Part shown: positions 2,039 to 63,326 of the stretch, piece after piece
Position numbering within the stretch: position 1 is the stretch's first letter
Layout: each line of letters opens with the position of its first letter
IMG/VR virus record: IMGVR_UViG_3300001336_000003
Coordinates: 1 to 64,000 of that record
DNA: 64,000 nt
Source: a virus
Lineage: Duplodnaviria; Heunggongvirae; Uroviricota; Caudoviricetes
Strand: one strand, 5' to 3'
The notes under the pieces: generated by a model
Database searches by the model: none
The model's input: only the letters and a program-made list of their open reading frames with translations
What the model was told of the DNA's origin: nothing
Position numbers and translations under genes: made by a program

Positions 2039-2054
2039 GCAAAAATTGGTTTTG

Positions 2055-2062
2055 TATAAATA
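2055..2062 (+). promoter_or_regulatory. late promoter TATAAATA upstream of gp23
   Basis: exact TATAAATA; RBS caaggagag before ATG 2099. Confidence 0.6.
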
Positions 2063-2098
2063 AAAGTATTGAAGAACAATAAAACAAGGAGAGACAAA

Positions 2099-3442
2099 AT
2101 GACTCTATCAAATGATCAGTTAATTAAAAAGTGGGGACCACTTTTGGAGCACGGCAATTTTGCTCCAATCGAAAATAACCACAAGAAAGCTGTAACGGCT
2201 ACGATTCTGGAAAACACAGAAATCGCACTCCGTGAAGGCACAACAATGTCACCAAATTCCCTTCTAATGGAAACATCGACCAACGCTGTTGGTCAATGGG
2301 GTGCAGCACCTGGACTTTCTTCTGGTGCAGACGCAGCAGGCCCTGTCGCGGGTTATGACCCTGTTCTAATCAGCTTGGTCCGTCGCGCAATGCCAAACTT
2401 GATTGCATACGATATTGCTGGCGTCCAGCCAATGACTGGTCCTACTGGCCTTATCTTCGCTATGCGTTCAAAGTTTAACAAGATGGCTGGCAACACTTCT
2501 TCGGAAGCTTTCTATCTTGAAGCAGACAGCGCATTCTCTGGTGCTGGTGCACAAACAACTGAGTTGTTCCCTGCATCTGCAAACACAGATGTTGACTTCG
2601 GAACAGGTATGGCAACAGGCGTAGCAGAAACACTTGGAACCACAGGTAACGAATTTGGTGAAATGGCATTCTCGATTGAGAAAGTTGCCGTGGAAGCAAA
2701 AAGCCGCGCATTGAAAGCAGAATACACCACTGAACTTGCACAAGACCTTCGTGCTGTTCATGGTCTTGACGCTGAAACAGAACTTGCTAACATTCTTTCT
2801 AGCGAGATTCTTGTTGAAATCAACCGCGAAGTTATCCGCACAATCTATGCAACTTCTGTCGTAGGTGCTGAAGCAACTGCTGCAAGAGGCGTATTCGACC
2901 TTGATGTTGACGCAAACGGTCGTTGGTCTGTTGAAAAGTTCAAGGGCTTGATGTTCCAAATCGAACAAGAAGCTAACGCAATCGCAAAAGCGACCCGTAG
3001 AGGGAAGGGTAACATCGTTATCTGTTCTTCGGACGTAGCTTCCGCATTGCAAATGGCTGGTGTTCTTGACTACACCCCTGCACTTAACAGCAATAACCTT
3101 CAAGTTGATGACACTGGCAACACTTTTGCTGGTATCCTTAACGGACGCTTCCGCGTTTACATTGACCCATATGCAACAAACAACTACCTAGTTGTTGGTT
3201 ACAAAGGTTCTAGTGCATTTGACGCTGGTTTGTTCTATTGCCCATACGTTCCGCTACAAATGGTCCGTGCAATCGGTGAGAACACCTTCCAGCCAAAAAT
3301 CGGGTTCAAGACACGCTACGGCATGGTCGCAAACCCATTCGCACAAGGTGCAAACGCATTTGCTGGTCCAAACAACCCAAGTGGTCTTACAGCAAATACA
3401 AACGTCTACTACCGTAAGATGCGCGTTAAGAACCTTATGTAA
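2099..3442 (+). CDS. 23: major capsid protein gp23
   Basis: Blocks shared with T4 gp23: VRRAMPNLIAYDIAGVQPM; EAKSRALKAEYTTELAQDLRAVHGLDAE; FKGLMFQIEQEA; GRFRVYIDPYA..YLVVGYKG; FQPKIGFKTRYG. Start moved to MTLSND (2099) by RBS and T4 alignment; ORF track start 2069. Confidence 0.95.
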   Translation: MTLSNDQLIKKWGPLLEHGNFAPIENNHKKAVTATILENTEIALREGTTMSPNSLLMETSTNAVGQWGAAPGLSSGADAAGPVAGYDPVLISLVRRAMPNLIAYDIAGVQPMTGPTGLIFAMRSKFNKMAGNTSSEAFYLEADSAFSGAGAQTTELFPASANTDVDFGTGMATGVAETLGTTGNEFGEMAFSIEKVAVEAKSRALKAEYTTELAQDLRAVHGLDAETELANILSSEILVEINREVIRTIYATSVVGAEATAARGVFDLDVDANGRWSVEKFKGLMFQIEQEANAIAKATRRGKGNIVICSSDVASALQMAGVLDYTPALNSNNLQVDDTGNTFAGILNGRFRVYIDPYATNNYLVVGYKGSSAFDAGLFYCPYVPLQMVRAIGENTFQPKIGFKTRYGMVANPFAQGANAFAGPNNPSGLTANTNVYYRKMRVKNLM

Positions 3443-3480
3443 TTTTTACATAAAAGAATCTGGAAACAACCAGATCGAAC

Positions 3481-3515
3481 TAAAGGCGGGGAAATTTCCC
3501 CGCCTTTTTTATTGT
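3481..3515. terminator. bidirectional rho-independent terminator (GGCGGGGAAATTTCCCCGCC + T-run) between convergent gp23 and endonuclease gene
   Basis: perfect 8-bp GC stem followed by TTTTTTATT on plus strand. Confidence 0.75.
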
Positions 3516-4888
3516 TCCCATATAAATTTTGCGTTGCCACAATCCCATATTCTATCCCAATTATCATCCATCATATTTTCATATTCTGTCTTTAATGGAT
3601 CGTAATTTTCCAATATATCACACAATTTGTGCTTTTGAAACTTCACACGAGAAAATAGCGTAGTGGTATTTTTCTTCCAATACCAGTAATTTGGTTCTGT
3701 CATGCCCACATAGTTAAAACCGCACTTCAAGTATACATTACCATCGCCAAATCTAAGATCAGAAAACGTCACTATACTTTCAGGACGCACTTCTTTTATG
3801 AAGTGATTTATTAATTTTGATACGCCACCTACAACTGTGTATTCACTATGTGAAGTTATCCTTGAACACTCATATTCGTATTTTTTGCTAAAACGGTTTT
3901 TTCCAAAAGAAGCTACCATAAGTAAATCACCACCATTAAAAAGACCATAGTGATGGCTCGCACCAACTGATGAATGTAGATGGTGTTCTTTATGAAACTG
4001 CATAGCTAATCTAGAATCTATTTTAGCTATTTGAGTTTTTCTTGCCCCTATTTTTTTGGTGCTACCTACCAACTTTGAAACTAGATACTTTACTTTTTCC
4101 ATGTCATCTGATTCGAAAACTGTTATTAGTCTATACCCCTTTTCTTTACATTTCAAGTATTTTTGTTTGTGGTAATTTTTTTTCTTTCCGCTTGATGTTT
4201 CTGAATGCCAATATAAACCACAATATTCAATAGCGATTTTCTTGTCTAAGTTAACTATATCCAATTCAAATGGGGCTATTATAGATCTGTCGCACCCTAT
4301 CCACGTGTCGTTTGGAAATTTACCCTTCAAATAATCATAAAGGTCTATTTCTGCTTTGCTACGCCAAGGTGGATTGATAGGTTCTATTTTTATATCATTT
4401 GACAAAAGTTGATTTCTTATATGTGTTTTGGACACGTTAAGCTTTTCGGCTAATGTGATAATAGATTTTGTTCTGTCATATTCTTTGTCAAGAAATTCTT
4501 TAGTGAAATGTATGTCTTGATGTTGCTTTTGCTTCCCCAATTTGGTAGACTCTGAAAGACTTCTAACTTCTATGTTACATTCTTCTATCCATTCGTATAT
4601 AGTAGCTTGGCTCACGCTGAAATATGCAGATAGCGATTCAATTGTAGATTCAGAATATAGCTGTTCGAGTTGTTTTTTATCAGGTTTTATTCTTTTTTTG
4701 TGTCTGGAATTTGCTTCCGTGGAAGCCTGTTTATGACTTTTTCTTTTTATGCTATGGTCTATAAGCCATTTTCTTACGGTTGGGTTAGAAGTATCGTATA
4801 GATTCGCCAAAGAAGAGATTGTCATCCCTTCTTTGGCATAGATACTTTCTAATTCGGATTTTGGTGGTATTGGTATTTTTTTACTCAT
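3509..4888 (-). CDS. free-standing homing-endonuclease-like protein: N-terminal repeated HTH modules + Vsr/DUF559-like PD-(D/E)XK nuclease core (IAIEYCGLYWHSE)
   Basis: 459 aa; three HTH-like segments (ISSLANLYDTSNPTVRKWL, IESLSAYFSVSQATIYEWI, ITLAEKLNVSKTHIRNQL); motif DIVNLDKKIAIEYCGLYWH similar to DFYLPDFNIAVEVNGTFWH of ORF 62430..63227; sits where T4 has segD after gene 23. Confidence 0.55.
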   Translation of the reverse strand: MSKKIPIPPKSELESIYAKEGMTISSLANLYDTSNPTVRKWLIDHSIKRKSHKQASTEANSRHKKRIKPDKKQLEQLYSESTIESLSAYFSVSQATIYEWIEECNIEVRSLSESTKLGKQKQHQDIHFTKEFLDKEYDRTKSIITLAEKLNVSKTHIRNQLLSNDIKIEPINPPWRSKAEIDLYDYLKGKFPNDTWIGCDRSIIAPFELDIVNLDKKIAIEYCGLYWHSETSSGKKKNYHKQKYLKCKEKGYRLITVFESDDMEKVKYLVSKLVGSTKKIGARKTQIAKIDSRLAMQFHKEHHLHSSVGASHHYGLFNGGDLLMVASFGKNRFSKKYEYECSRITSHSEYTVVGGVSKLINHFIKEVRPESIVTFSDLRFGDGNVYLKCGFNYVGMTEPNYWYWKKNTTTLFSRVKFQKHKLCDILENYDPLKTEYENMMDDNWDRIWDCGNAKFIWEQ

Positions 4889-4907
4889 ACCAAGCTAACA
4901 CTCCCCA

Positions 4908-10555: not shown

Positions 10556-11389
10556 ATGACTATTTATCTTTACATCAAAAAACACAAAATAACAGGTTTA
10601 AAATATCTGGGTATAACTTCACAAGAAGACCCTCACAAATATACTGGTTCGGGTAAAAGATGGTTAAGACATCTTAAAAAACATGGATACGAATATACGA
10701 CTGATATTCTACTCGCCACAGAAAACAAAAAAGACATTGAAAGAACTGGGTTATTTTTTTCTATGTTGTGGAACATAGTAAAAAGCAGTGATTGGGCAAA
10801 TTTGACGGAAGAACGCGGGAATGGTGGTGACATGGGGTTTTCGGGTCTGGCGTCCACCAGAGAAAAAATGAGTAATTCGCACAAGAAAAAAGTAAAAGAA
10901 GGGACACATCATCTTTTATGTGGCGACATACAAAAACAATCAAATAAAAAAAGAATTGATGAGGGGACGCATAATTTATTAGGTAATAATAACCCATCGC
11001 ATAAAAGAGTTGCAGATGGAACACATCACTTTTTGGATATAAGCTGGCAAAAGAGTGTAGCAAAAAGTAGAACTCAGAAAGCTATAGATAACGGAAACCA
11101 CTATTTTTCATCAGATTTAGGAAAAGAAAATTTGAAAGCTTATCAACAAAAAAGAGTTGTTGAAGGAAGTCATAATTTTTTAGGTGAAAAAAATCCATCA
11201 CATGATAGAATAAAGAATAAAACACATAATTTTCTAGGCTCAATTTCATGTAGAGATAAGACAGGCAATTGCGTTCAAATTTCAAAAGATATATACTATC
11301 GTCAAACAGGCCCAATGGAAGATTGGGAATATGTTGTAGTTCGTTCCAAAGAAGGCAAAAAAAGAAAAGAACTTCTTACCAAGTGTTGA
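10556..11389 (+). CDS. free-standing homing endonuclease-like (IY-YLG / YxGSG N-domain, NUMOD-like GTHHxLG repeats)
   Basis: MTIYLYIKKHKITGLKYLGITSQEDPHKYTGSGKRWLRHLKKHGYEY; paralog of 41596..42237 and fragment 21700..21903; repeats EGTHHLL/EGTHNLL/DGTHHFL/EGSHNFL/NKTHNFLG. Confidence 0.6.
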   Translation: MTIYLYIKKHKITGLKYLGITSQEDPHKYTGSGKRWLRHLKKHGYEYTTDILLATENKKDIERTGLFFSMLWNIVKSSDWANLTEERGNGGDMGFSGLASTREKMSNSHKKKVKEGTHHLLCGDIQKQSNKKRIDEGTHNLLGNNNPSHKRVADGTHHFLDISWQKSVAKSRTQKAIDNGNHYFSSDLGKENLKAYQQKRVVEGSHNFLGEKNPSHDRIKNKTHNFLGSISCRDKTGNCVQISKDIYYRQTGPMEDWEYVVVRSKEGKKRKELLTKC

Positions 11390-23820: not shown

Positions 23821-24822
23821 ATGACTATTTATCAACCTTACTTTTATATAATTCAAGAAATATCTACTGGAATGTATTATGCTGGTGCGAAATGGGCGAA
23901 AGACGCAAATCCTAATGATTTTTTAACCCCAAATGGTTATCACACCTCTTCAAAATTAGTTAAATATCTAATCGAAAAAAACGGATTGCAATCATTTAAG
24001 ATTCGAAAAATAAAAACTTTTGCAAATATGTATGATACATATGAATATGAAACAAAATTTCTAAAAAAAGTAAACGCCAAAAGTAATTCTTGTTTCTTAA
24101 ATGGGCATGAAAATAATTGGGGTGTGACGGACAATACGAACATGGTTTCAGTAAAAAACAAAAGTGGTGAAAATTTTAAAGTTAGAGTAGATGACCCCAG
24201 ATACAGATCGGGAGAATTTTTCCACAACACCAAAGGAAAAGTTGTGGTAAAGGATGAAAATGGAAATACGTTTCAAATATGTGTTGATGATCCTAGATTC
24301 ATCACAAAAGAATTGCAACACGTTTCAAAAGGGACGACTGTCGCTTTGGATACCGTTACGGGCAAAGTTAAAAGAGTTTCCACAGATGATTTCAACCAAA
24401 CAAAAAATTTAGTCGGTATTTGTAACGGTTTCGTTCCTGTAATGGATACTTACGGGAACAAGTTCTCGGTTAATAGGGGTGACGTAAGATTTGAAACGGG
24501 TGAAATAAAGCATGTTACAAAAGGTAGGGTTACTGTAAAATCTACAGATGGTAAAACTATGAGTATATATACCACTGATCCGAGATATACATCTGGTGAA
24601 TTGGTTCACAATACTACTGGAATGGTAAGTGTGAAGGATAAACATGGCAATACAATGCAAGTTAGTAAAAAAGACCCAAGATACATTTCAGGCGAATTAG
24701 TCGGGGTTTCAAAAGGCATAAAAAGAACACCTCAAATAACAAAATGCCCGCATTGCAGCAAGAGCGGCGCTATGTCTCAAATGAAAAGATGGCATTTCGA
24801 AAATTGTAAGATGTTGCGGTAA
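23821..24822 (+). CDS. homing endonuclease-like protein with tandem about 22-aa repeats and C-terminal Cys finger, inserted inside rnlA
   Basis: IYQPYFYIIQEISTGMYYAGAKWA N-domain (paralog of 53328); 7-8 repeats of VxVKDxxGNTxxVxxDDPRYxSGELVH; C-terminal CPHCSKSGAMSQMKRWHFENCK. Confidence 0.6.
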   Translation: MTIYQPYFYIIQEISTGMYYAGAKWAKDANPNDFLTPNGYHTSSKLVKYLIEKNGLQSFKIRKIKTFANMYDTYEYETKFLKKVNAKSNSCFLNGHENNWGVTDNTNMVSVKNKSGENFKVRVDDPRYRSGEFFHNTKGKVVVKDENGNTFQICVDDPRFITKELQHVSKGTTVALDTVTGKVKRVSTDDFNQTKNLVGICNGFVPVMDTYGNKFSVNRGDVRFETGEIKHVTKGRVTVKSTDGKTMSIYTTDPRYTSGELVHNTTGMVSVKDKHGNTMQVSKKDPRYISGELVGVSKGIKRTPQITKCPHCSKSGAMSQMKRWHFENCKMLR

Positions 24823-34417: not shown

Positions 34418-35263
34418 ATGGATATTTATTCCATATTGGCTTCAAAGCCTCACAATACGCACTACTTAAATAGATATATTAGATTTATTAAGCAATGTCA
34501 ACATAAAAACGTCAATCATAATGGATATGCCGAAAAGCATCATATTTGTCCCAAAGCCAAAGATATGTTTCCCGAATACGCATCTTTTAAAAAGAACAAG
34601 TGGAACCTTTCACTACTTACGCCAAGGCAACATTTCATAGCTCATATACTACTGTGGAAATCATATCCAAATATAGCCAGTATGACATATGCTGCTCATT
34701 CCATGCGAAATTATCAAGACACCAAAGTAAATAGCAGATTATACGAAAATTTGAAGATAGAATTTATAAAAACGCAGTCTACTAGGACTCACAAACAACA
34801 TCTAAACATGTCTATCGAAGAAAAGAATAAAATATCCGATAAAATTTCCACAAATTCTAAAAATTTAGTTCAGGCAAAAACCAAAGAAGGGTTGACTGTA
34901 AGGATAGCAAAAACAGAATTTGATAATAGTGTAAACTATGTTGGTCACACCAAAGGAATGACCACTGTGAAAGATGCTGATGGAAGGTTTCATTTTGTTT
35001 CTGTAGACGATCACAGAATAAAGTCTGGCGAACTTGTTGGACCCAATACTGGAAAAACTTTTAGTGAAGAAGTTAGAAAAAAGTTAAGAAAAGTCAGAAA
35101 GGGAAGAAAACATACAGAAAAAGCAAAGATGAAAATGAGAAAGCCTAAAGGACAACAGAAAAAATTAATATGCCCTTATTGTGGAAAGTGTGGTGGCGCA
35201 TCAAACATCAAAAGATACCACTATGAAAATTGCAAAAATGCAATTGTTGAACAGTTATCATGA
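34418..35263 (+). CDS. HNH homing endonuclease-like protein with the cassette-shared repeat unit and C-terminal Cys finger
   Basis: HNH core EKHHICPK....LTPRQHFIAH; one copy of VKDADGRFHFVSVDDHRIKSGELVG repeat; C-terminal CPYCGKCGGASNIKRYHYENCK. Confidence 0.7.
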   Translation: MDIYSILASKPHNTHYLNRYIRFIKQCQHKNVNHNGYAEKHHICPKAKDMFPEYASFKKNKWNLSLLTPRQHFIAHILLWKSYPNIASMTYAAHSMRNYQDTKVNSRLYENLKIEFIKTQSTRTHKQHLNMSIEEKNKISDKISTNSKNLVQAKTKEGLTVRIAKTEFDNSVNYVGHTKGMTTVKDADGRFHFVSVDDHRIKSGELVGPNTGKTFSEEVRKKLRKVRKGRKHTEKAKMKMRKPKGQQKKLICPYCGKCGGASNIKRYHYENCKNAIVEQLS

Positions 35264-35315: not shown

Positions 35316-35753
35316 TTATTTGTTCACCATTACAATCCATGCCGCAACTACTTTTCTTTCCAATTTCGGAAATTCTTCAATGGGAACAGGCTTTTTAGTC
35401 CAATTATCAGCGGCATAACCATAATGTGCTGTCATCATGTGATCGTTAGTAGCGAACATGATGGGCATCACTTTTTCATAAGATGACCGTTCCGAAAGAA
35501 ATTTACGAATTGAAGGCGGCGATTGCCAACGGCTTTCCATATCAATAGGAATAGCCTTGTAGCCTTGTTCACGAAGAAGCAACACGGCTTCTTCAAGATA
35601 TACGCCTTGAACATCTTTACGAGGCTTGTTTTGCATCATCGCAGCACGACTATGCATGTGACCTACAGGCGCACCAGTAAGAAGTGCAACGGCAGTAGGG
35701 ACGCACCAAGCAGTGACATTTTCCCAACCACGAAAATCAAGAGTGTGAAGCAT
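35316..35753 (-). CDS. hypothetical protein (GC-richer)
   Basis: ORF track. Confidence 0.35.
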   Translation of the reverse strand: MLHTLDFRGWENVTAWCVPTAVALLTGAPVGHMHSRAAMMQNKPRKDVQGVYLEEAVLLLREQGYKAIPIDMESRWQSPPSIRKFLSERSSYEKVMPIMFATNDHMMTAHYGYAADNWTKKPVPIEEFPKLERKVVAAWIVMVNK

Positions 35754-35832
35754 GATAAATTTCCTTTCAATAAGGGGTATATCTGTTTTTCAGTGTCTTG
35801 TCAAGAAAAAGTTGGGGATTTCTCCCCAACCT

Positions 35833-36621
35833 TTAAGCGATTTTTTTGGTGCTTGCGGTGTTGATTGCGCGGTTCAGGTTTACGCGGTCTCCTGCTGCCC
35901 GTCCTGCACCGTGCGCAGTATAGTTGCTACCGTAGCTGAAAGAAGGCATGGAACGAAGCCGTGGGTGCGCTTTCTTGTAAGCTTCATTGACTTCTTTCCG
36001 CTTCATTTCTGCAATTTCAGCAACGATAAGGGCAGTAGAAGAAGATGTTGCAGCGTTTTCGATTTGCATTTTTTCTGCTTGGCGCTTTTCAGACTGGCGA
36101 TTTGCTTCTGCCTCACGCGCCATTTCGTAAAGACGCGAAGAAACACGCGAAGCCATGGAAGTTTGGAAAGCAGTTTTTGCACCGTAACCAACCGACTTGT
36201 TATTCATGCGATAGGTTTCATATTCACGGTCAAGGGCTTCTTTGACAACTGCAACGATATAGTTGGCAAGCTCAACATCGGGGCGGTGTCCAGTGAAGGT
36301 GATTTCGCCACTATAACGATTGTAAACCGCTTTGGTGGAAGTGAAGGCACCTACACCAGTAAGGCACAGGATGATCTTGTGACGCTGTTTACCGTTCATG
36401 CAGGTGGTATCGACAACTTTGTTGATGATATCAAGAACAATGCGACCTTCTGTTTCAGCAAGTGCAAGTTCGGCTTCTTCGATGCTATAGGCGTCCATAA
36501 GCTTTGCAGCCATGGTGAAGGCGCTTTGCATTTCAGCTTCTGAAGCACCGTCATTTTCAGCTTTGGCACGAAGGTTCATAACACGCTGAAGGATTTTGTC
36601 GCGTTGGGTCTGTTCAGTCAT
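35833..36621 (-). CDS. Ala-rich hypothetical protein (DUF2786-like), GC-rich foreign-looking
   Basis: composition; antisense ORF 35752..36543 is an artefact of GC-rich coding. Confidence 0.5.
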   Translation of the reverse strand: MTEQTQRDKILQRVMNLRAKAENDGASEAEMQSAFTMAAKLMDAYSIEEAELALAETEGRIVLDIINKVVDTTCMNGKQRHKIILCLTGVGAFTSTKAVYNRYSGEITFTGHRPDVELANYIVAVVKEALDREYETYRMNNKSVGYGAKTAFQTSMASRVSSRLYEMAREAEANRQSEKRQAEKMQIENAATSSSTALIVAEIAEMKRKEVNEAYKKAHPRLRSMPSFSYGSNYTAHGAGRAAGDRVNLNRAINTASTKKIA

Positions 36622-41595: not shown

Positions 41596-42237
41596 TTGGC
41601 AGGCATCCCAACCATTCTAGAAACACAAAGGAGTTCCAGCATGCATTATTTATATGTAAAAACACATAATAAAACGGGTTTAAAATATTTAGGAAAGACA
41701 AAATCTAAAGATCCATTTAAATATAGGGGTTCAGGAAAATACTGGAAACGGCATATTAATAAGCACGGTTATGATGTCACAACTCAAATATTACTTGTTA
41801 CTGAAAACAAAGAAGAATTAAAGCAAACTGGCCTATTCTTTAGTAAATTATGGAATATAGTAAAATCACGAGAATGGGCAAATTTGAAATTGGAAAATGG
41901 CGATGGGGGTTGGGATCATATAATATTAAAGGGTAGAACTTTTTCAGATGAAACTAAAAGAAAAATGTCAATATCTGCTATCGTAAGACAAACTGGTGAA
42001 ACAAATTCATTTTACGGAAAAACACATTCTGATGAAACTAGAAAATTGATTGGAGAACATAGTAAAGAAAGAGGTAAAGAGCAATATACAAAAAGAATAA
42101 ATAATGGCACTCATCCTAACAACAAAAGTGTATGCCCTCATTGCAATAAAATTGGACAATATAGAGCAATGAAAAGATGGCATTTTGATAATTGTAAATT
42201 ACTTAACTCTTTGGTTGTCTTCCATCAGGCCACTTAA
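41596..42237 (+). CDS. free-standing homing endonuclease-like (YxGSG-type N-domain, NUMOD3-like units, C-terminal Cys finger)
   Basis: MHYLYVKTHNKTGLKYLGKTKSKDPFKYRGSGKYWKRHINKHGYD close paralog of 10556; GKTHSDETRKLI unit; CPHCNKIGQYRAMKRWHFDNCK. Confidence 0.65.
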   Translation: MAGIPTILETQRSSSMHYLYVKTHNKTGLKYLGKTKSKDPFKYRGSGKYWKRHINKHGYDVTTQILLVTENKEELKQTGLFFSKLWNIVKSREWANLKLENGDGGWDHIILKGRTFSDETKRKMSISAIVRQTGETNSFYGKTHSDETRKLIGEHSKERGKEQYTKRINNGTHPNNKSVCPHCNKIGQYRAMKRWHFDNCKLLNSLVVFHQAT

Positions 42238-46139: not shown

Positions 46140-46212
46140 TATAAATATAAGTGCCAGTCGCGGTTGCCGCCAAGAAACCCACTGACTCTATGTTTAGTAA
46201 CCCAAAGAGAGG
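46140..46212 (+). promoter_or_regulatory. homing-endonuclease cassette leader
   Basis: TATAAATATAAGTGCCAGTCGCGGTTGCCGCCAAGAAACCCACTGACTCTATG...GAGGAACACAGCAC ATG. Confidence 0.65.
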
Positions 46213-47089
46213 AACACAGCACATGTATATTTATCTGATACGCAATATCATCAATGACAAGATTTATATTGGTCAAACTACAAAAACACCCGAAAAAAGA
46301 TTTAGGCAGCATGTATACACAAGTAAAAGACTAAAGACACAACTATATAACTCTATGAACAAATACGGCGAAGAAAATTTCATAGTAGAAGTTCTGGAAG
46401 TTGTTCAGGACAAGAGCCTTCTAGACCCAAGGGAAATATATTGGATAGCGGAACTGGAGCCAGAGTATAACATGACTATAGGTGGCCAAAGAAGTAGTAC
46501 CACAGAAAAATACACGGAAGAGCGTAAACGCGAAAGATCGGCAAAAAGTTCCGCTTCCATAAAAAAGATGTGGGATTCCATGAGTGAAGATGAACGCAAA
46601 GAACGCATGAAAAAAACCCACGCAAAAACAGATTACAAATCACATTCTGATAAACTTTCGGTTTCTAGAAGAAGATTTTTTACGAATGAAACTGAAGAGC
46701 AGAAAGCAATTAGAATAGAAAAAGCTAAAATAGGTGCCAAGAAAACAGAAAAAATCAAATGTCATTATTGTGATCAGGAAATTGGTGGTGGTAAATATAA
46801 TCTAGTAAAACACGAAGAAGTATGCTCAAAAAATCCATCATCAAAAAATTTTGGGAAAAGCACAAAAAAGAAACAACCTTATAGCTATACAATACTAGAT
46901 CCAAACAATACAAAGCATATAACATCATCATTTAAGGGATTTTGCAAAACACACAATCTTTCAAGATATTTGCTTATGAAAAATATTGGAAGTGTAGTTG
47001 AAAGCGTTGACGCTAAAACTAATAACGCCAACGCAACAACAATAAATACCTTTGGGTGGTGTTTACTTAGGATTGATGATCTGACTTAG
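46151..47089 (+). CDS. GIY-YIG homing endonuclease with NUMOD3-like repeats and C-terminal Cys finger
   Basis: YIYLIRNIINDKIYIGQT..RFRQH..LYNSMNKYG..NFIVEVLE..REIYWIAELEPEYN is the canonical GIY-YIG domain; TEERKRERSAKSS/ERKERMKKTHAKT units; CHYCDQEIGGGKYNLVKHEEVC. Confidence 0.85.
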   Translation: MPVAVAAKKPTDSMFSNPKRGTQHMYIYLIRNIINDKIYIGQTTKTPEKRFRQHVYTSKRLKTQLYNSMNKYGEENFIVEVLEVVQDKSLLDPREIYWIAELEPEYNMTIGGQRSSTTEKYTEERKRERSAKSSASIKKMWDSMSEDERKERMKKTHAKTDYKSHSDKLSVSRRRFFTNETEEQKAIRIEKAKIGAKKTEKIKCHYCDQEIGGGKYNLVKHEEVCSKNPSSKNFGKSTKKKQPYSYTILDPNNTKHITSSFKGFCKTHNLSRYLLMKNIGSVVESVDAKTNNANATTINTFGWCLLRIDDLT

Positions 47090-53327: not shown

Positions 53328-54371
53328 ATGGCTATTTATTCACCATACACATATCTTATCGGATGGTCAAGACTTAATACGTGGTATTATGGCGTAAGAT
53401 ATGCAAGAAAAAGTCAATGTCTTTATGAAAGTGGTTGTCATCCAGACGAACTTTGGGTCACTTATTTCACATCTTCGAAACATGTTAAAGATTTCAGGGA
53501 AAAACATGGCGAGCCAGATGTTATACAAGTCAGGAAAACTTTTCCATCAGACTCCTCAAAATCACAAGAAGACGAAAAAGAACTTGCACGAAGCGCTCTT
53601 CTTTGGGAAGAAAAAATTCTTATTCGTGTAGGTGCTATACATAAGGATATGTGGATCAACAAGAGCATCGCAGGTCATTTCAGGACCACAGAGAGTAACC
53701 CCAATCCACTAAAGGGTAAAACATACGAAGAAGTATATGGAGTTGAAAAATCAGAAGAGTGGAAACACGCGACGAGTATCGCCAGCCAAAAATTTTGGAA
53801 TTCAGATGCAGGTAAAGAAAGAAAAAAATACCTATCTGAAAATATAAGTGAAAACTTTACCACTCTTGGCATAGAACCAGTGTGTAAAATTAAAGATACT
53901 TTTATTCATGTATGTGAGATATGTGGCGAGTTTAATAAAAGAAGAAAAACAGCAGGTGAGTTGAAAAAGAAAACTTGCGGTAGCAAATCGTGTGCAATAA
54001 AATGGTTCTATAAATACAATCCAGAAGCAGCAAAATCTAAAATGCCTCCAACAAAGTTCACTACTATAGGCCACGAACCAGTAAATAAAATCACCGATAC
54101 ATTTCTATGGAAGTGCGTTGTGTGCGGGGTTTCATGCGTAAAGCGTGATACAATAAAAAATAGAAACAAGATAACATGTGGCAAATCTTGTGCAGCAACT
54201 TACAACAACCGAAAAAGAGTAGAAAACGGATATACAAAACAAGGTTCAACGTATAAACACAAAGGTAAAAAGTTTTTAATAACCAATGGTTATGAAACAG
54301 CATTGTTAGAAAAAGGCGACCAGATTCCACAAGGATGGGAATCTGGTCGCCATTGGAAACCAAAAGGTTAG
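53328..54371 (+). CDS. free-standing homing endonuclease-like protein (IY-YLIG N-domain, two Zn-ribbon repeats)
   Basis: MAIYSPYTYLIGWSRLNTWYYGVRYA paralog of 23821 N-domain; repeats IEPVCKIKDTFIHVCEICG / HEPVNKITDTFLWKCVVCG each followed by CGxxCA. Confidence 0.6.
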   Translation: MAIYSPYTYLIGWSRLNTWYYGVRYARKSQCLYESGCHPDELWVTYFTSSKHVKDFREKHGEPDVIQVRKTFPSDSSKSQEDEKELARSALLWEEKILIRVGAIHKDMWINKSIAGHFRTTESNPNPLKGKTYEEVYGVEKSEEWKHATSIASQKFWNSDAGKERKKYLSENISENFTTLGIEPVCKIKDTFIHVCEICGEFNKRRKTAGELKKKTCGSKSCAIKWFYKYNPEAAKSKMPPTKFTTIGHEPVNKITDTFLWKCVVCGVSCVKRDTIKNRNKITCGKSCAATYNNRKRVENGYTKQGSTYKHKGKKFLITNGYETALLEKGDQIPQGWESGRHWKPKG

Positions 54372-56857: not shown

Positions 56858-58525
56858 CTAAACTGCCATAGGTGCTTTAATTGTTGGGTGGCACTGATAA
56901 TTTTTAAGTGTAAACATATTTACCGTATTAAAATTGAATCCGTATGTCAAACCTTTAGACAAAACAAAGTCTTCTGATATTTCTAATGTTGGTAGAGGAT
57001 ATTCTTTTCTCGTAAGTTGTTCCCGAACCTGTTCAATATGATTATTATATATGTGTGCATCACCTATGGAATATACGAGTTCACCAACTTGCATATTAAC
57101 TTCTCTAGCCAAAATATGAATAAGAAGTGCATATGAAGCAATGTTGAAAGGCGCACCCAAAAATGCGTCATTTGATCTCATTGTTAACATCCCGCTTAAT
57201 TTGTTCTCTCTGACAATAAGTTGAAAGAAACAGTGGCATGGTGGTAGTGCTTGCATATCTATAACCGTAGGATTCCATGCTGACAATATGATTCTTCTTG
57301 ATTCGGGTTCGTTTTTTATTTGGTTTATTATATTTACGATTTGGTCGGCCACCACCTTTTTACGAAATACATGTCCATTAGAAGCTTGAATATATTTTAG
57401 ACTATACCCATTATAACTTTCACCTGTGTCTAACAAATAAGAAATCCTCGCCAGTGTCAAATCATCTATGCTATTGCATATGTCTGTTTTATACAGATAG
57501 TCTTTGTATGTATCATAGTGGAAAACTCTTATTTTTCTATGATGGTCTACTTGTTTATTGGCTATTGCCAAGTTCATCTTTTTTGGTAGAAATATGCAAG
57601 TGTGTTTAGAATAGATGTCAGAGCAATAGTAATCTTTATCCAATTCGTAGTCATTATTCATCTTAACCCATTCATAAAATCCTGGGATTTTATCTATGTC
57701 TAGTAAAAAATTCTTAAAATCCATCCAACTATCAGAAACACGAACACCCCTAGCCCCATAATTTCTATAACTTAGATGTTTTTTATTATAGCATCTATCT
57801 ATCATATGAATCCATAGTTTATATGCTTTCTTATAGTAAGATGGTTTATCACCTCTGAATGAATTGTTTGCCACCCCCTTAATCAAAGGGTTGAGGCAAA
57901 TCTTCTTAGGTATATTACTTCCTAAAATTTTAGTCAATTCACCCGTATCTAGTGCTTGCGCTATGTAAGTTTTTCGATATTTGTCGTTGCTGCACAGACC
58001 TAATATTTTAATGGGTCTACCAGATTTAGATGTAAATCTATAGCCCGTATATTTGTGTCCATCGCCGTAGTCTGCAAATTCAATAACTTCTTTAGCCGTA
58101 TCTATCGTTTCTTTGCGTTCTGGAACTTCTGTAATTTGTTCGCTGGCAGAATACCAATTTCTCCACATACTGCCATACACAGGACCAAGAAGCCCTATAG
58201 ATTCGATAGAATCATACCCTAAATTTTTTCCTTGGTGTATTAGATTATCTGTCCATATCGTTTGTTTACCTACCAATTCCTCACGGGGTTTGCCATATGT
58301 CAATTCAGCAAGTCGTCTTTCATCTGTGCCGCCTTCAAGAAACCATAACAATTCACCCACAACAGATTTCCATGCGAGTTTCTTTGTGGTGACGGCTGGA
58401 AACCCATCGTTCAAATCAAATCGCATCTGATAACCAAAAACAGAACGTGTTCCAACACCAGTTCTATCTTCAACATCAACACCATTTTCCAAGACGTGTC
58501 TAATCAAATCATGATATTGTTGCAT
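56858..58525 (-). CDS. td: thymidylate synthase ThyA carrying an in-frame about 265-aa insertion that contains an HNH-endonuclease motif
   Basis: N-terminus DRTGVGTRSVFGYQMRFDL..FPAVTTKK..LLWFL..LGPVYGSMWRNW and C-terminus SRRIILSAWNP..ALPPCH.FFQ..RSNDAFLGAPFNIASYALL..GDAHIY match ThyA; middle has KLWIHMIDRCYNKKHLSYRNYGARGVRVSDSWMDFKNF (phage HNH family). Confidence 0.85.
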   Translation of the reverse strand: MQQYHDLIRHVLENGVDVEDRTGVGTRSVFGYQMRFDLNDGFPAVTTKKLAWKSVVGELLWFLEGGTDERRLAELTYGKPREELVGKQTIWTDNLIHQGKNLGYDSIESIGLLGPVYGSMWRNWYSASEQITEVPERKETIDTAKEVIEFADYGDGHKYTGYRFTSKSGRPIKILGLCSNDKYRKTYIAQALDTGELTKILGSNIPKKICLNPLIKGVANNSFRGDKPSYYKKAYKLWIHMIDRCYNKKHLSYRNYGARGVRVSDSWMDFKNFLLDIDKIPGFYEWVKMNNDYELDKDYYCSDIYSKHTCIFLPKKMNLAIANKQVDHHRKIRVFHYDTYKDYLYKTDICNSIDDLTLARISYLLDTGESYNGYSLKYIQASNGHVFRKKVVADQIVNIINQIKNEPESRRIILSAWNPTVIDMQALPPCHCFFQLIVRENKLSGMLTMRSNDAFLGAPFNIASYALLIHILAREVNMQVGELVYSIGDAHIYNNHIEQVREQLTRKEYPLPTLEISEDFVLSKGLTYGFNFNTVNMFTLKNYQCHPTIKAPMAV

Positions 58526-59724: not shown

Positions 59725-60408
59725 TTAGGAAAAGAAGCTTGTCAGGCCATTGTTGCCTTCAAGTCTTTTCTTCGCTATGTCAAAATATTTATCATCCAAT
59801 TCTATACCGATAAAAGGCAATCCTAGTCTTCGTGCAGCAACACCTGTGCTACCAGAACCCATAAATGGATCAAGAACAATACCATTGGAACCATCACCAA
59901 TGCCATGTATCAAATCTTGCATCAATGAAACGGGTTTACAAGTTGGGTGCCCATGATCTTCAGATGGACTTGGCCTTCTATGGGAAAATACGGATTTCGG
60001 TCTTTTATTGGCGAATGATCTTTTGCCTTTTGTGGCATACCAAATAATATCGTGCATGGGCGCAAAAGAACCAGATAGATCACCCATGCCGTGGTGCATT
60101 CTATTCCACACACCTTGTGACTTCAAATCGAACCCGTATTGTTCTATTGATTGACGCCAAACATGACTTGTGTTCCAATCGCAAAAAGAAATAAGCCCCC
60201 CTCCGTCTTTCAAGACGCGGAAAGCTTCACCTAACCATTCAGTGAAAAATACATCATCATTCGCAATTGCTTTATGTCTAGGACCATCTTTTCCGTGATT
60301 TGAACGAAAATTCATACCATAAGGCGGATCTGTGACCACCATATCAACAGACCCGCTTTCAATTTCAGACATTTTTTCTAAACAGTTACCATTTAACAGT
60401 TTTATCAT
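59725..60408 (-). CDS. beta-class N6A/N4C DNA methyltransferase (motif IV DPPY before motif I FMGSGST)
   Basis: SVDMVVTDPPYGM; FRVLKDGG; LDPFMGSGSTGVAA. Confidence 0.8.
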   Translation of the reverse strand: MIKLLNGNCLEKMSEIESGSVDMVVTDPPYGMNFRSNHGKDGPRHKAIANDDVFFTEWLGEAFRVLKDGGGLISFCDWNTSHVWRQSIEQYGFDLKSQGVWNRMHHGMGDLSGSFAPMHDIIWYATKGKRSFANKRPKSVFSHRRPSPSEDHGHPTCKPVSLMQDLIHGIGDGSNGIVLDPFMGSGSTGVAARRLGLPFIGIELDDKYFDIAKKRLEGNNGLTSFFS

Positions 60409-61046: not shown

Positions 61047-63326
61047 TCAAGCATCATCCGAAAAGAAATTATCTAGCGTAGTCTTTTTTTGGACAGCTTC
61101 TATCCTTGCTTTCGCAATTTCAATATATTCTGGATCAAGTTCAATACCAATGAAGTCGAACCCTTCAAGTTTTGCGGCTTTGCCAGTCGAACCAGAACCC
61201 ATGAAAGGATCAAGAACAGTTCCATTAGGTGGAGTTACAAGTTTCACAAGATAGCGCATTAGTTCTGTTGGCTTCACCGTAGGATGATTATTTTTGGAAG
61301 GTATGAAAGGTCTATTTGCTCTTTCTGGAACCGCAGCACCTTCATGTTTCCATTCCTTGTCAGGAAGATTTTCCAAACCCTCATTGCGATCTTTCTTGGA
61401 AGTCTTGGCACAGTAAAAGAAACGGGCAGCGGAACCTTCGTCATTGTAATTGCTAGGTGATTGTGGTTTATCGCCATTAAACATGGAAGTATCTTTGTTG
61501 TCATACTCGTTTCCAGCATAAGAATATACACCTTTGTTATTACCAGAACCAGTTTTTGGAAACAACTCTGTCACTTCTTCACTACCATCATGAATGAGGT
61601 TGGCGGGGAAACGACCAACGCTGTCGTCCACCTTAGCCCGTTCGGTTATGCCTCCGTTGTGAAGCGCAGTACTCCCTGCGCAACCCCCGCTAGTTTTCTT
61701 CGTGCCGTTCAAATCAACTCTACTTTCATCAATATTGATGCCACCTGTGCCATACTTTAACACATTAGCAGCAACAGTATTTTCACTTAGTGGCTTTCTT
61801 GCAACAGTGATCGGTTCTAATGCGGGCTTTAGAGCAGTTCCCCAACCATTCCATTTTTTGGCTTCATCTGTAGCGGGTGCAGTTATTTGAATAACATTTT
61901 TTGCACTTTTGTCTTCTGAATTTCCAGTATATGCGTTTGGCCTAAATCCGTGTTCTGCATTAGTTTTAGAAATGTGAGCCATTCCGCCAGAGTTTGTTTT
62001 TGTCTCTGATATAATTTCGCGTTCTGCACCAGACATTTTATCAATAGCTTTACTAATATCCAATGACTTCGGAAATCCGCTTCCATAACCCCATCCCACC
62101 ATTCCATCACGACCAAATGTAGCATCAAAAAGCTTCATCTGTTCTGGAGTCAAAGATTCAAAAAGTTGTTGGGCTGTGGTATTAGTATCATATAGATATG
62201 TGACCATATCACGAATTTCAAAACCAGCATCTTCAATGTTGACTGCCATCCTATGTTGCGTCCTAGTGCCAGCAAATGCCAACAAATGACCGCCGGGCTT
62301 CAAGACTCGCAAACATTCTTGCCAAATTTCAGTAGTAGGGACGTCATAATCCCATTTTTTACCCATAAAACCACTGGAATTTGTATAAATATCAGATACA
62401 GATTTAAGTAAATTTTTAGGAACATAAAGATGCAAAAAATACTCAGAACTTGTCCCGTTTGCAGTATCCAATATGAAGCCGACCCTAACAGGCTGAAGCA
62501 CGGTAGACAAACTACTTGCAGCAAGGTTTGTTCTTACAATCTTAGGTCTGATAAAATTAGAAAAAGTGTTACTCTTGAGTGTGGTAATTGCGGCACTGGA
62601 ATAATCAGAAGCCCTAGTCAAATCAAAAGTAAGCACGGGCACATCTTCTGTTCCATTTTCTGTAAGAGTGAAGCTATGAGCAAAGGAATCATCCCCCATG
62701 TTATCACTACCCCATACAATATCAGGAACCCCATCCCTGAAGATAGGAAAAGGGAAATCCATTCCAGAATTTGGGAAACAAGAAGAAAAAATGGAACTGA
62801 TAGGCACACTAAAGAAACCATACGAAAATTGTCCGAAATTACCACTAAAAACATCGTCAGCGGTAAAATCAATAGAATTTCCAAAATCGAATATGAAGTT
62901 TCCGATAAACTTACTTCCATTGGCGTCAAATTTATCCCTCAATATGGTATCAGGGATATGAAAACTGGAAGATACTGTGCTTCTGTCGATTTCTATCTCC
63001 CTGACTTCAACATTGCCGTCGAAGTAAATGGGACTTTCTGGCATAGAGACCCTAGATTTTATGATAGGAATAGTCTCACACCTGCTCAAATCAGAACACA
63101 TACTAGATTTGAAAGAAAAGTCGCTATATTGGATTCTCTTAATATCACTCTCGTAGAAATTTGGGAGCATGATATTAAAACTTTTCCAGACAGCTTTATT
63201 GACCCTCTTATAAAGGTTATCGCCTAAACCATAAGGGGGATCTGTAACAATGCTATCCACACTGTTATCTGGTAATTCTTTCATCTTATCAAGGCAATCG
63301 CCAAGCATCAATTTAACTTCAGTCAT
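61047..63326 (-). CDS. large beta-class DNA methyltransferase whose ORF runs in frame through an antisense-inserted endonuclease cassette
   Basis: SVDSIVTDPPYGL (aa 24-34), then about 290 aa Ser/Phe-rich low-complexity region, then IWQECLRVLKPGGHLLAF, long TRD, LDPFMGSGSTGKAA; paralog of 59725..60408. Confidence 0.8.
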   Translation of the reverse strand: MTEVKLMLGDCLDKMKELPDNSVDSIVTDPPYGLGDNLYKRVNKAVWKSFNIMLPNFYESDIKRIQYSDFSFKSSMCSDLSRCETIPIIKSRVSMPESPIYFDGNVEVREIEIDRSTVSSSFHIPDTILRDKFDANGSKFIGNFIFDFGNSIDFTADDVFSGNFGQFSYGFFSVPISSIFSSCFPNSGMDFPFPIFRDGVPDIVWGSDNMGDDSFAHSFTLTENGTEDVPVLTFDLTRASDYSSAAITTLKSNTFSNFIRPKIVRTNLAASSLSTVLQPVRVGFILDTANGTSSEYFLHLYVPKNLLKSVSDIYTNSSGFMGKKWDYDVPTTEIWQECLRVLKPGGHLLAFAGTRTQHRMAVNIEDAGFEIRDMVTYLYDTNTTAQQLFESLTPEQMKLFDATFGRDGMVGWGYGSGFPKSLDISKAIDKMSGAEREIISETKTNSGGMAHISKTNAEHGFRPNAYTGNSEDKSAKNVIQITAPATDEAKKWNGWGTALKPALEPITVARKPLSENTVAANVLKYGTGGINIDESRVDLNGTKKTSGGCAGSTALHNGGITERAKVDDSVGRFPANLIHDGSEEVTELFPKTGSGNNKGVYSYAGNEYDNKDTSMFNGDKPQSPSNYNDEGSAARFFYCAKTSKKDRNEGLENLPDKEWKHEGAAVPERANRPFIPSKNNHPTVKPTELMRYLVKLVTPPNGTVLDPFMGSGSTGKAAKLEGFDFIGIELDPEYIEIAKARIEAVQKKTTLDNFFSDDA
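62384..62391 (+). promoter_or_regulatory. late promoter TATAAATA of the embedded endonuclease, located inside the methyltransferase ORF
   Basis: TTTGTATAAATATCAG...taggaacataaagATG. Confidence 0.55.
62430..63227 (+). CDS. Zn-ribbon + Vsr/DUF559-like PD-(D/E)XK endonuclease (homing-endonuclease-like), embedded antisense within the methyltransferase gene
   Basis: CPVC..CSKVC and CGNCG..CSIFC zinc ribbons; nuclease core RYCASVDFYLPDFNIAVEVNGTFWHRD ... LVEIWEHD. Confidence 0.75.
   Translation: MQKILRTCPVCSIQYEADPNRLKHGRQTTCSKVCSYNLRSDKIRKSVTLECGNCGTGIIRSPSQIKSKHGHIFCSIFCKSEAMSKGIIPHVITTPYNIRNPIPEDRKREIHSRIWETRRKNGTDRHTKETIRKLSEITTKNIVSGKINRISKIEYEVSDKLTSIGVKFIPQYGIRDMKTGRYCASVDFYLPDFNIAVEVNGTFWHRDPRFYDRNSLTPAQIRTHTRFERKVAILDSLNITLVEIWEHDIKTFPDSFIDPLIKVIA

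Follow-up and report, generated by a model that had tools for sequence, protein, structure and literature searches.

How can a gene for a DNA-cutting enzyme lie backwards inside a DNA methyltransferase gene and yet leave the methyltransferase reading frame open from end to end? The question is raised by a locus in the window, i.e., the whole stretch of 64,000 nucleotides that was analysed (positions 1 to 64,000 of IMG/VR virus record IMGVR_UViG_3300001336_000003). A sequence-only reading had proposed that a homing-endonuclease cassette lies codon-for-codon antisense within the methyltransferase ORF, and that selection keeps the latter translatable. Both ORFs exist, and the arrangement is confirmed; the features are collected in Table 1. 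The proposed interpretation is supported, with the corrections given below.

Table 1. Features of the methyltransferase–endonuclease locus, with other window genes used in the comparisons.
Feature	Coordinates	Strand	Description
Methylase ORF	61047..63326	-	759 aa; beta-class N6/N4 DNA methyltransferase, PF01555; reads through the insert
Methylase N-terminal exon	63225..63326	-	codons 1-34, ending in catalytic motif IV, DPPYG-L
Methylase C-terminal exon	61047..62372	-	codons 319-759: GFMGKKWD ... RVLKPGG ... GSGFPKS ... HPTVKP ... DPFMGSGSTG (AdoMet-binding motif)
Mobile cassette	62373..63224	+	852 nt (284 codons) between DPPYG(L/I) and FMGK; comprises the inferred promoter, ribosome-binding site and endonuclease ORF
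TATAAATA	62384..62391	+	T4-type late-promoter-like motif, 38 nt upstream of the endonuclease ATG
AGGA	62418..62421	+	Shine-Dalgarno-like sequence, 8 nt before the endonuclease ATG
Endonuclease ORF	62430..63227	+	265 aa plus stop; two CxxC...CxxxC zinc ribbons (aa 8-78), then Vsr-like nuclease domain (aa ~147-250)
Endonuclease ATG	62430..62432	+	complement of methylase His299 (CAT) in FLHLY
Endonuclease stop TAA	63225..63227	+	reverse complement of methylase Leu34 (TTA) in DPPYG-L
Paralogous methylase	59725..60408		33 aa at the site corresponding to the insert
Unrelated GC-rich gene	35833..36621	-	fully open 263-codon antisense frame

The first step is to ask whether each frame encodes a real protein. 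The methylase matches Pfam N6_N4_Mtase in two stretches (E=2.3e-32), and its Protein Data Bank relatives are CcrM and M.RsrI. An identical protein and 14 full-length insert-bearing homologues were found, although no near-identical DNA was found among GenBank phages. The antisense ORF encodes a genuine Vsr-like enzyme of the homing-endonuclease lineage, its C-terminal domain having a predicted Vsr-type PD-(D/E)xK fold. The zinc-ribbon cysteines and residues E154, D187, E198, H205 and K230 are conserved in at least 95% of embedded copies and are invariant in an alignment of 38 sequences. The notion that only the minus strand carries a gene and that the endonuclease is spurious was rejected on the basis of fold, homologues and dN/dS. 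As for expression, TATAAATA occurs 20 times in the window against 5.1 expected and lies upstream of most plus-strand ORFs. The phage is T4-like (Gp23). The motif is conserved in two relatives with an occupied site, L005 and L104, and reads CATAAATA in a third, L103; the AGG of the Shine-Dalgarno-like sequence is also conserved in relatives. The functions of the promoter and the ribosome-binding site are inferred.

Is the cassette a discrete insertion? The sequence-only reading took the paralogous methylase as evidence for a clean insertion. The claim is right, but the orthologous empty allele shows it better. L102, a syntenic relative whose methylase is 90% identical, lacks the cassette; the empty site reads GATCCTCCATATGGAATTAACTTTATGGGT. 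Comparison of L102 with the occupied alleles of the window, L103, L104, L105 and L005 gives the cassette boundaries, which are ambiguous by a few bases. The inserted length is an exact multiple of three, and the site, just after the catalytic DPPYG motif, is in the most conserved stretch of the gene. The insert is 83-99.9% identical between genomes whose flanking exons are 58-94% identical. Thus, window against L005 gives 93.6% for the insert versus 70-74% for the flanks, and L103 against L105 gives 99.9% versus 73.5% and 93.8%. In addition, the DPPYG junction is disrupted in nearly all endonuclease-carrying loci. These are signs of horizontal movement and are only indirect evidence of homing.

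The next step concerns the open frame. A TTA, CTA or TCA codon in the endonuclease would be a stop codon on the other strand, and none is present in its 266 codons. About 7.8–8 are expected from the codon usage of the window, giving P about 1e-4, about ten times weaker than the 1e-5 estimated from sequence alone. Even this value is fragile, as a uniform-codon model is too optimistic: the unrelated GC-rich gene of Table 1 has an open antisense frame of comparable length (its plus-strand ORF, 35752..36543, is spurious), and the major capsid gene has a 239-codon open run. The endonuclease does carry a rare-codon signature, using CTC for 4 of 12 Leu (background 3%) and TCC for 6 of 21 Ser (background 9%). 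The single-sequence statistic is only suggestive, and it is the comparative evidence that makes the case.

To obtain an unbiased sample, loci were found by endonuclease homology alone in IMG/VR viral contigs, GTDB genomes and JGI metagenomes. Of the distinct copies flanked by both methylase exons, 60 of 60 have no antisense stops and a continuous host frame. These copies form 41 clusters at 70% identity, with a median pairwise identity of 43%, in loci of GC 0.37-0.72. Among the 29 embedded copies scored in a first census, expected stops per gene were 1.1–12.8, and the chance of seeing none fell as low as 6e-8; the other two minus-strand frames were open for only ~10-160 codons. The census needs both exons to be recognisable, so that badly decayed methylases would be classed elsewhere, and such cases (L127 and L158) do exist. 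The natural controls are as follows. Two copies with only an N-exon remnant, L127 and L158, have 14 and 6 stops, respectively, and two copies next to a methylase that has its own N-exon, L160 and L181, have 1 and 2. Of 17 free-standing copies, 7 have 1–9 stops, and of 13 copies in other contexts, 9 have 1–13. The 10 free-standing relatives that also lack antisense stops are mostly in GC-rich genomes, but one, L118, has GC 0.41, and some of the avoidance could be inherited rather than currently selected. Two loci were not resolved: L055 has an open antisense frame but no recognisable host gene, and L037 has an endonuclease near a methylase C-terminus. Interestingly, most of the methylases beside free-standing copies carry a stop plus a short gap at the same DPPYG site.

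Selection on the two frames of the same DNA differs. dN/dS is 0.15-0.3 in the endonuclease frame, indicating purifying selection, and 0.5-1.2 in the methylase frame of the insert, which drifts. Between invaded alleles, the C-terminal exon gives 0.03-0.11 and the N-terminal exon about 0.08-0.2 in most comparisons, with one pair at 0.47; synonymous divergence in the exons is saturated. That is, both exons remain strongly conserved. In the methylase frame, the insert is Ser/Phe-rich (42 Ser and 29 Phe of 284 residues), has no Pfam match, and has a predicted pLDDT of 22-50, against 91 for the endonuclease frame. The position seems to tolerate length variation, as one homologue, P0014, has a natural ~30-aa extension at this site.

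Taken together, these results favor the following explanation, in which we have good confidence. A mobile cassette inserted in antisense orientation into the methylase gene of a T4-like phage, bringing with it a late-promoter-like TATAAATA, a ribosome-binding site and a gene for a zinc-ribbon plus Vsr-like homing endonuclease. The endonuclease is probably made late in infection and probably cuts cassette-free alleles at the DPPYG|LxFMGK-coding DNA of co-infecting phages, whereupon recombinational repair would copy the cassette in. The cleavage site and the late expression are inferred. No intron or intein signature was found that would remove the cassette, and since its length is right and the endonuclease avoids the three codons, ribosomes translating the methylase mRNA can read straight through. 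The predicted product is a 759-aa methylase carrying a 284-residue, probably disordered loop. In the absence of expression, protein or methylation data, that this protein, with its extra residues directly after the catalytic DPPY loop, is an active methylase is an inference.

Of the alternatives, the one that survives best, though it is unlikely, is that the frame is kept open for reasons other than methylase activity. Continuous translation may prevent Rho-dependent polarity or mRNA decay and so protect downstream genes (the 191-aa gene, the paralogous methylase, and the dihydrofolate reductase and thymidylate synthase genes), the read-through protein itself being inactive; selection for an open frame could partly serve this end. 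In favor of this view, the methylase lies upstream of several nucleotide-metabolism genes on the same strand, a second methylase is present, and the methylase is regarded as dispensable in actinophages in the papers cited below. On the other hand, the frame rejoins the methylase frame exactly, and the N-exon with DPPY and the C-exon with all remaining motifs stay under strong purifying selection in invaded alleles. Moreover, the genomic context differs between invaded genomes: in L105 the gene lies between the T4 gp44 and gp62 homologues, yet the frame is still kept.

Cryptic splicing, of the mRNA by an unrecognised intron or of the protein by a non-canonical intein, is improbable. It has some appeal because antisense Vsr-like and LAGLIDADG endonucleases do occur inside inteins, and because this methylase family hosts inteins, that of Lilac gp101 lying at the YG|SGFPKS site. 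However, no Rfam family reached its gathering score anywhere in the window, and Pfam finds no Hint or intein domain in the 759-aa protein or in the insert. The first insert residue is G, S, A or N and the residue after the insert is F or G, and neither is the C/S/T nucleophile that protein splicing needs. The endonuclease ORF fills 266 of the 284 codons, leaving 18 outside it and no room for a splicing domain; a divergent ribozyme cannot be strictly excluded, but there is no sequence space for one. The near-neutral evolution and low pLDDT of the insert frame also argue against splicing, and RNA splicing would remove the need for an open frame, yet the frame is selected.

It is equally improbable that the insert has been co-opted as a functional domain of the methylase, for example in regulation or target recognition, with both strands encoding selected proteins. 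In favor of this view, in the closest pair, window against L005, substitutions are nearly symmetric between endonuclease codon positions 1 and 3 (18:5:23), and amino-acid divergence is similar in both frames. At greater divergence, however, the identity of the methylase-frame insert falls to 36-52% while the endonuclease stays at 61-70%; the dN/dS values and the lack of a Pfam match or confident fold given above also count against co-option, and close relatives do without the insert. Finally, the view that the insertion killed the methylase and that the open frame is a coincidence, the codon-register antisense frame being the one most often open, draws on the fragile single-gene P and the other open antisense runs in the window but is effectively refuted by the census, whose embedded set is not one recent clone; the insert length, purifying selection on both exons, the stops that accumulate where the methylase is incomplete, and the average GC of the endonuclease (0.385, against 0.478 for the GC-rich gene with a chance open frame) also count against it.

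The locus matters in several respects. A selfish endonuclease gene can sit in the catalytic core region of a host gene with no splicing machinery, needing only the right length and the avoidance of three codons. The locus is also a clean natural case of one gene's synonymous codon usage being constrained by the frame on the opposite strand, with internal controls in the copies not inside a complete methylase. Gene callers report only one of the two genes: in GenBank phages Camster and Malithi the endonuclease is unannotated and a 'hypothetical protein' is called on its antisense strand, and the hidden HNH ORFs in BUCT618 and Cr-LKS3 are likewise unannotated. For protein engineering, the loop after DPPY in beta-class methylases appears to tolerate about 280 unstructured residues. 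A broader proposal, which we offer only tentatively, is that read-through insertion is a general third way, beside introns and inteins, for homing endonuclease genes to live harmlessly inside protein-coding genes, one maintained by natural selection. The host ribosome would simply translate the parasite's DNA in another frame, or on the other strand, as a disordered loop, and the endonuclease's codon usage would be shaped by the need to stay stop-free in the host frame. One methylase family would then host an antisense Vsr-like endonuclease, an out-of-frame HNH, an in-frame LAGLIDADG and inteins. The short stop-containing gaps beside free-standing relatives are flanked by matched codons and would need ribosomal hopping, as in a miniature T4 gene 60.

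How does the element compare with known systems? In the T4 gene 60/MobA bypass cassette and the Aeh1 nrdA 'genes in pieces', a free-standing phage endonuclease likewise invades an essential or conserved gene, an unusual expression trick keeps the host gene working, and the inserted sequence also protects the carrier genome from cleavage, the last two being inferred here. Those cases use ribosomal hopping over a 50-nt gap or assembly of two polypeptides, whereas here the whole cassette is simply translated, although free-standing relatives of the endonuclease do show hop-like junctions. Among EDxHD/Vsr-like homing endonucleases (I-Bth0305I, PMC3239194; 'fractured genes', Dassa et al. 2009, PMC2677866), the present enzyme is similar in being phage-borne and probably in targeting conserved sites in DNA-metabolism genes. 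Its D187, N200 and H205 align with Vsr D51, H64 and H69, but the position aligned to the last acidic residue of Vsr is an invariant Lys (K230). I-Bth0305I sits in a group I intron and has NUMOD/helix-turn-helix DNA-binding motifs rather than two zinc ribbons. In fractured genes the endonuclease is on the same strand, between split-intein halves, and the host gene is in two pieces; here there is one continuous host ORF and no intein was detected, while Camster/Malithi and the free-standing loci do have interrupted methylase genes. In non-canonical inteins with antisense endonucleases (Gorbalenya 1998 and Gogarten 2002, as cited in Gosselin et al., bioRxiv 10.1101/2025.01.02.630785), a LAGLIDADG or Vsr-like endonuclease is also encoded antisense within an in-frame insertion of a phage gene, with the host frame open across it. 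Those elements have flanking splicing domains that remove the insert from the protein, and the reported hosts were DNA polymerase, minor capsid protein, terminase and thymidylate synthase, not methylase.

The closest precedent is the ShiLan domain, a hidden out-of-frame HNH endonuclease in a mycobacteriophage DNA methylase (Arsenault, Gosselin & Gogarten 2025, PMC11855218; Gosselin et al. 2023, PMC9957025). Thus, the sequence-only reading, which was not aware of such a description for homing-endonuclease insertions, is to be corrected in that the phenomenon is not wholly undescribed. The methylase family is broadly the same, as Lilac gp101 belongs to the ShiLan family and is 43% identical to the window methylase. 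In both cases the insertion lies at a conserved site without stop codons in the host frame, the endonuclease is encoded by another reading frame of the same DNA, no intron or intein was detected, the host-frame peptide has a low-confidence structure, the disjunct distribution implies homing, and free-standing relatives sit next to the methylase gene. Both endonucleases carry zinc-finger modules, and the window's zinc-ribbon module is 33% identical to that of the hidden HNH in phage BUCT618. The latter can be called ShiLan-like in arrangement only, as a tblastn search at 1e-8 found only the query itself. The present element differs in that its endonuclease is on the opposite strand in codon register, not on the same strand in frame 3, its nuclease is Vsr-like rather than HNH, its site is directly after catalytic motif IV, and a promoter motif (of inferred function) and Shine-Dalgarno sequence are present. 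Selection on the host frame is demonstrated statistically here, with natural controls, a test that we did not find in the parts of those papers consulted. The finding extends the 2025 ShiLan observation from a handful of actinophages to T4-like phages and dozens of environmental lineages, and it adds evidence for selection.

The minus-strand methylase ORF of 759 codons and the plus-strand ORF of 265 codons are in exact codon register. That is, the plus-strand stop codon TAA is the complement of Leu34 (TTA) in DPPYG-L, and the plus-strand ATG is the complement of His299 (CAT) in FLHLY. Pfam places N6_N4_Mtase (PF01555, E=2.3e-32) on the long ORF in two separated stretches. A TATAAATA motif precedes the plus-strand ORF, and AGGA lies 8 nt before its ATG. 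The coordinates of these and other features are collected in the following table.

Coordinates of the features discussed, in the window or in the record named
Feature	Record	Coordinates	Strand
Methylase ORF	window	61047..63326	minus
Endonuclease ORF	window	62430..63227	plus
Endonuclease stop codon TAA	window	63225..63227	plus
TATAAATA preceding the endonuclease ORF	window	62384..62391	
Cassette	window	about 62373..63224	
Methylase segment, aa ~387-421	window	about 62064..62168	minus
GC-rich gene	window	35833..36621	minus
Spurious-looking ORF over the GC-rich gene	window	35752..36543	plus
Thymidylate synthase gene	window	56858..58525	
In-frame insert in thymidylate synthase	window	~57347..58159	minus
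Isolated ORF	window	10556..11389	plus
Isolated ORF	window	23821..24822	plus
Isolated ORF	window	34418..35263	plus
Isolated ORF	window	41641..42237	plus
Isolated ORF	window	46190..47089	plus
Isolated ORF, no match	window	53328..54371	plus
Methylase ORF	L005 (IMGVR_UViG_3300001580_000164)	2447..4900	minus
Unannotated ORF within methylase	L001 (E. coli phage BUCT618, OM735461)	1896..2501	same as methylase
Unannotated ORF within methylase	L004 (Cylindrospermopsis phage Cr-LKS3, OM373202)	1890..2504	same as methylase
Vsr-like endonuclease homologue	L003 (Mycobacterium phage Camster, MW055902)	2429..3256	plus

The plus-strand ORF has no TTA, CTA or TCA codons, whereas about 7.8-8 are expected from 14,516 background codons of the window, giving P about 1e-4. 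Instead, it uses otherwise rare codons: CTC for 4 of 12 Leu, against a 3% background, and TCC for 6 of 21 Ser, against a 9% background. We do not regard this P value as decisive on its own, as the capsid gene has a 239-codon open antisense run and a GC-rich minus-strand gene has a fully open 263-codon antisense frame. The latter gene looks like a real protein, has a GC content of 0.48, against 0.38 for the window, and has strongly biased codon usage (12 of 14 Leu are CTT), while the ORF that overlies it is spurious-looking by its composition. This case shows that long open antisense frames can arise here without any dual-coding function.

The plus-strand ORF is a real endonuclease. It has about 80 full-length homologues of 250-290 aa at 36-57% identity. 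Eight cysteines forming two zinc ribbons are invariant, as are E154, D187, E198 and K230, in an alignment of 38 sequences; H205 is conserved in at least 90% there, and all of these residues are conserved in at least 95% of embedded copies. A family profile hits Vsr (1cw0, E=5.5e-4) and the I-Bth0305I nuclease domain (3r3p, E=3e-3), and PHROG homing/HNH endonuclease families also match. The N-terminal zinc-ribbon module also occurs fused to HNH and LAGLIDADG nucleases, and it is 33% identical to that of a hidden HNH ORF in E. coli phage BUCT618.

The endonuclease gene lies in a discrete insertion. The metagenomic protein P0005, encoded in a syntenic context (locus L102), is 90% identical to the window methylase, is 470 aa long, and lacks the insert. 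The empty allele reads GAT CCT CCA TAT GGA ATT AAC TTT ATG GGT, whereas the occupied alleles read TAT GGT TTA, then 852 nt, then TTT ATG GGT, a net insertion of 284 codons. The endonuclease ORF fills 266 of these codons, and the remaining 57 nt carry the promoter-like and Shine-Dalgarno-like motifs. The site tolerates natural length variation: the homologue P0014 has a ~30-aa extension there, and the window's paralogous methylase has 33 aa between DPPY and RVLK. Elsewhere in the methylase, a ~35-aa segment (TYLYDTNTTAQQLFESLTPEQMKLFDATFGRDGMVG) lies before the GSGFPKS motif; among the 19 aligned homologues, it is present only in the window and in P0005.

The arrangement is widespread. A search with the 759-aa protein found many full-length insert-bearing homologues at 39-66% identity. 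To avoid bias from gene calling, IMG/VR viral contigs, GTDB genomes and JGI metagenomes were then searched with the endonuclease alone, and each locus was classified by where the methylase exons lie. All 60 distinct endonuclease genes flanked by both exons have zero TTA/CTA/TCA codons and a continuous host frame. These 60 form 41 clusters at 70% identity, with a median pairwise identity of 43%, and their loci have GC contents of 0.37-0.72. In the first census, the other two minus-strand frames were open for only ~10-160 codons, and among the 29 embedded copies scored there, expected antisense stops per gene were 1.1-12.8, with the chance of zero as low as 6e-8.

Natural controls point the same way. 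Locus L127, which keeps only an N-exon remnant, has 14 antisense stops, and locus L158 has 6. In loci L160 and L181, where the endonuclease lies between an N-exon remnant and a methylase with its own N-exon, there are 1 and 2 stops, respectively. Of the free-standing copies, 7 of 17 carry stops, as do 9 of 13 copies in other contexts. The 10 free-standing genes that still have no antisense stops include L118, at GC 0.41, and several lie between tandem methylase genes; this could reflect recent descent from embedded copies or some other constraint.

Where the same endonuclease is free-standing and divergent from the methylase gene, the methylase gene is in most cases interrupted at the same DPPYG site by an in-frame stop plus a 1-14 nt spacer. 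The spacer often contains TACCA, and the gene often resumes in another frame. In 15 of 17 distinct junctions, the codon before the stop is repeated (same amino acid) just before the gene resumes at (G)LxFMGK, an example being the free-standing locus L142, which reads GGA TAA TACCAC GGA TTA TTT TTC ATG. This resembles the take-off and landing of ribosomal hopping, as in T4 gene 60. Alternatively, it could be a split gene that re-initiates at the ATG of FMGK.

To ask which frame is selected, pairs at 60-82% endonuclease identity were compared. In the endonuclease frame, dN/dS is 0.15-0.3 and amino-acid identity is 0.61-0.82. In contrast, in the methylase frame of the same DNA, dN/dS is 0.5-1.2 and amino-acid identity is 0.36-0.75. 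The methylase-frame insert has no Pfam match and has pLDDT values of 22-50 in a full-length model. The methylase exons of invaded alleles have dN/dS of about 0.03-0.2 with synonymous divergence of 1 or more, and this includes the 33-codon N-exon, although one pair gives 0.47 for it. So the endonuclease and both methylase exons are taken to be functional, activity of the read-through methylase being an inference, and the insert is constrained in the host frame only to stay open.

The insert is more similar between genomes than its flanks are. Between the window and locus L005, insert identity is 93.6%, against 69.6% for the N-exon and 74.1% for the C-exon. Between the occupied alleles L103 and L105, insert identity is 99.9%, against 73.5% and 93.8%, respectively; the two differ by 1 nt in 795 within the endonuclease ORF, and the high C-exon identity would fit a co-conversion tract. 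L103 is syntenic with the window, whereas L105 carries the gene between T4 gp44 and gp62 homologues. Synonymous divergence in the insert (0.13-0.5) is far below that of the exons.

The window belongs to a T4-superfamily phage, with a Gp23 major capsid protein that is 64% identical to that of Sinorhizobium phage phiM12. The TATAAATA motif, which appears to be the T4 late-promoter consensus, occurs 20 times against 5.1 expected. It lies upstream of most plus-strand ORFs, most of which are endonuclease-like. Six isolated plus-strand ORFs sit among minus-strand genes, each 26-80 nt downstream of the motif, and five of the six match homing-endonuclease families (GIY-YIG, NUMOD3, HNH, 'intron-like endonuclease'). 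The phage is unusually rich in free-standing endonuclease genes. Early transcription of the minus-strand methylase and late transcription of the endonuclease are inferred.

No intron and no intein was found. A further candidate insertion is present in the window's thymidylate synthase ORF, which is 555 aa because of an in-frame insert of about 270 aa between GPVYG..WR and DQIVNII. Translated in the synthase frame, this insert matches PHROG HNH-endonuclease families (phrog_2081, E=2e-35), and the syntenic relative L103 has a 296-aa enzyme without it. Rfam found no intron in the window, and Pfam at E up to 1 matched no intein domain in the insert. It may be a sense-strand, in-frame endonuclease-derived insertion.

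Related arrangements are found in other methylase genes. GenBank annotates single methylases of 620 and 616 aa in BUCT618 and Cr-LKS3, yet these contain unannotated ORFs of 201 and 204 aa, respectively, in a different frame of the same strand. These ORFs show HNH-like and zinc-ribbon motifs by eye, and the methylase frame stays open through them; the arrangement resembles the ShiLan domain but occurs outside actinophages. In L005, one methylase ORF appears to carry two hidden endonuclease inserts. One is the antisense Vsr-like cassette (91% identical to the window's), and the second is a stop-free insert further downstream, after KPALE, that closely resembles the insert holding the out-of-frame HNH ORF in Cr-LKS3. 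An in-frame segment of L005 also looks helix-turn-helix-like by eye. In Mycobacterium phage Camster, and also in Malithi, a 275-aa homologue of the Vsr-like endonuclease (21% identity) lies antisense within the methylase region at a different site, before the HPTVKP motif. GenBank instead annotates a 'hypothetical protein' (gene 55) on its antisense strand, and the methylase is split into genes 54, 55, 56 and 57.

Antisense Vsr-like endonucleases have been described previously, but inside inteins and in other host genes. In the 'fractured genes' of Dassa et al., Vsr-like endonucleases are on the same strand, between split-intein halves. In a literature search that was not exhaustive, we found no description of an antisense Vsr-like endonuclease embedded directly, without an intein, in a methylase. 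The closest precedent is the ShiLan domain, a 202-aa stop-free, non-splicing insertion in a mycobacteriophage methylase that hides a same-strand, frame-3 HNH endonuclease (PMC11855218). Its methylase family includes Lilac gp101, which matches the window methylase at 43% identity; that paper does not mention antisense or Vsr-like cases. To summarize, the sequence-only reading, which had noted an endonuclease cassette antisense within an open methylase frame and proposed selection to keep the methylase translatable, is confirmed in its observation and supported in its interpretation, with the activity of the read-through methylase, the cleavage site and the timing of expression being inferences. 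The class of phenomenon was published in 2025; the present case differs from it in strand, nuclease family, insertion site and host phages, and it comes with direct evidence for selection on the host frame.
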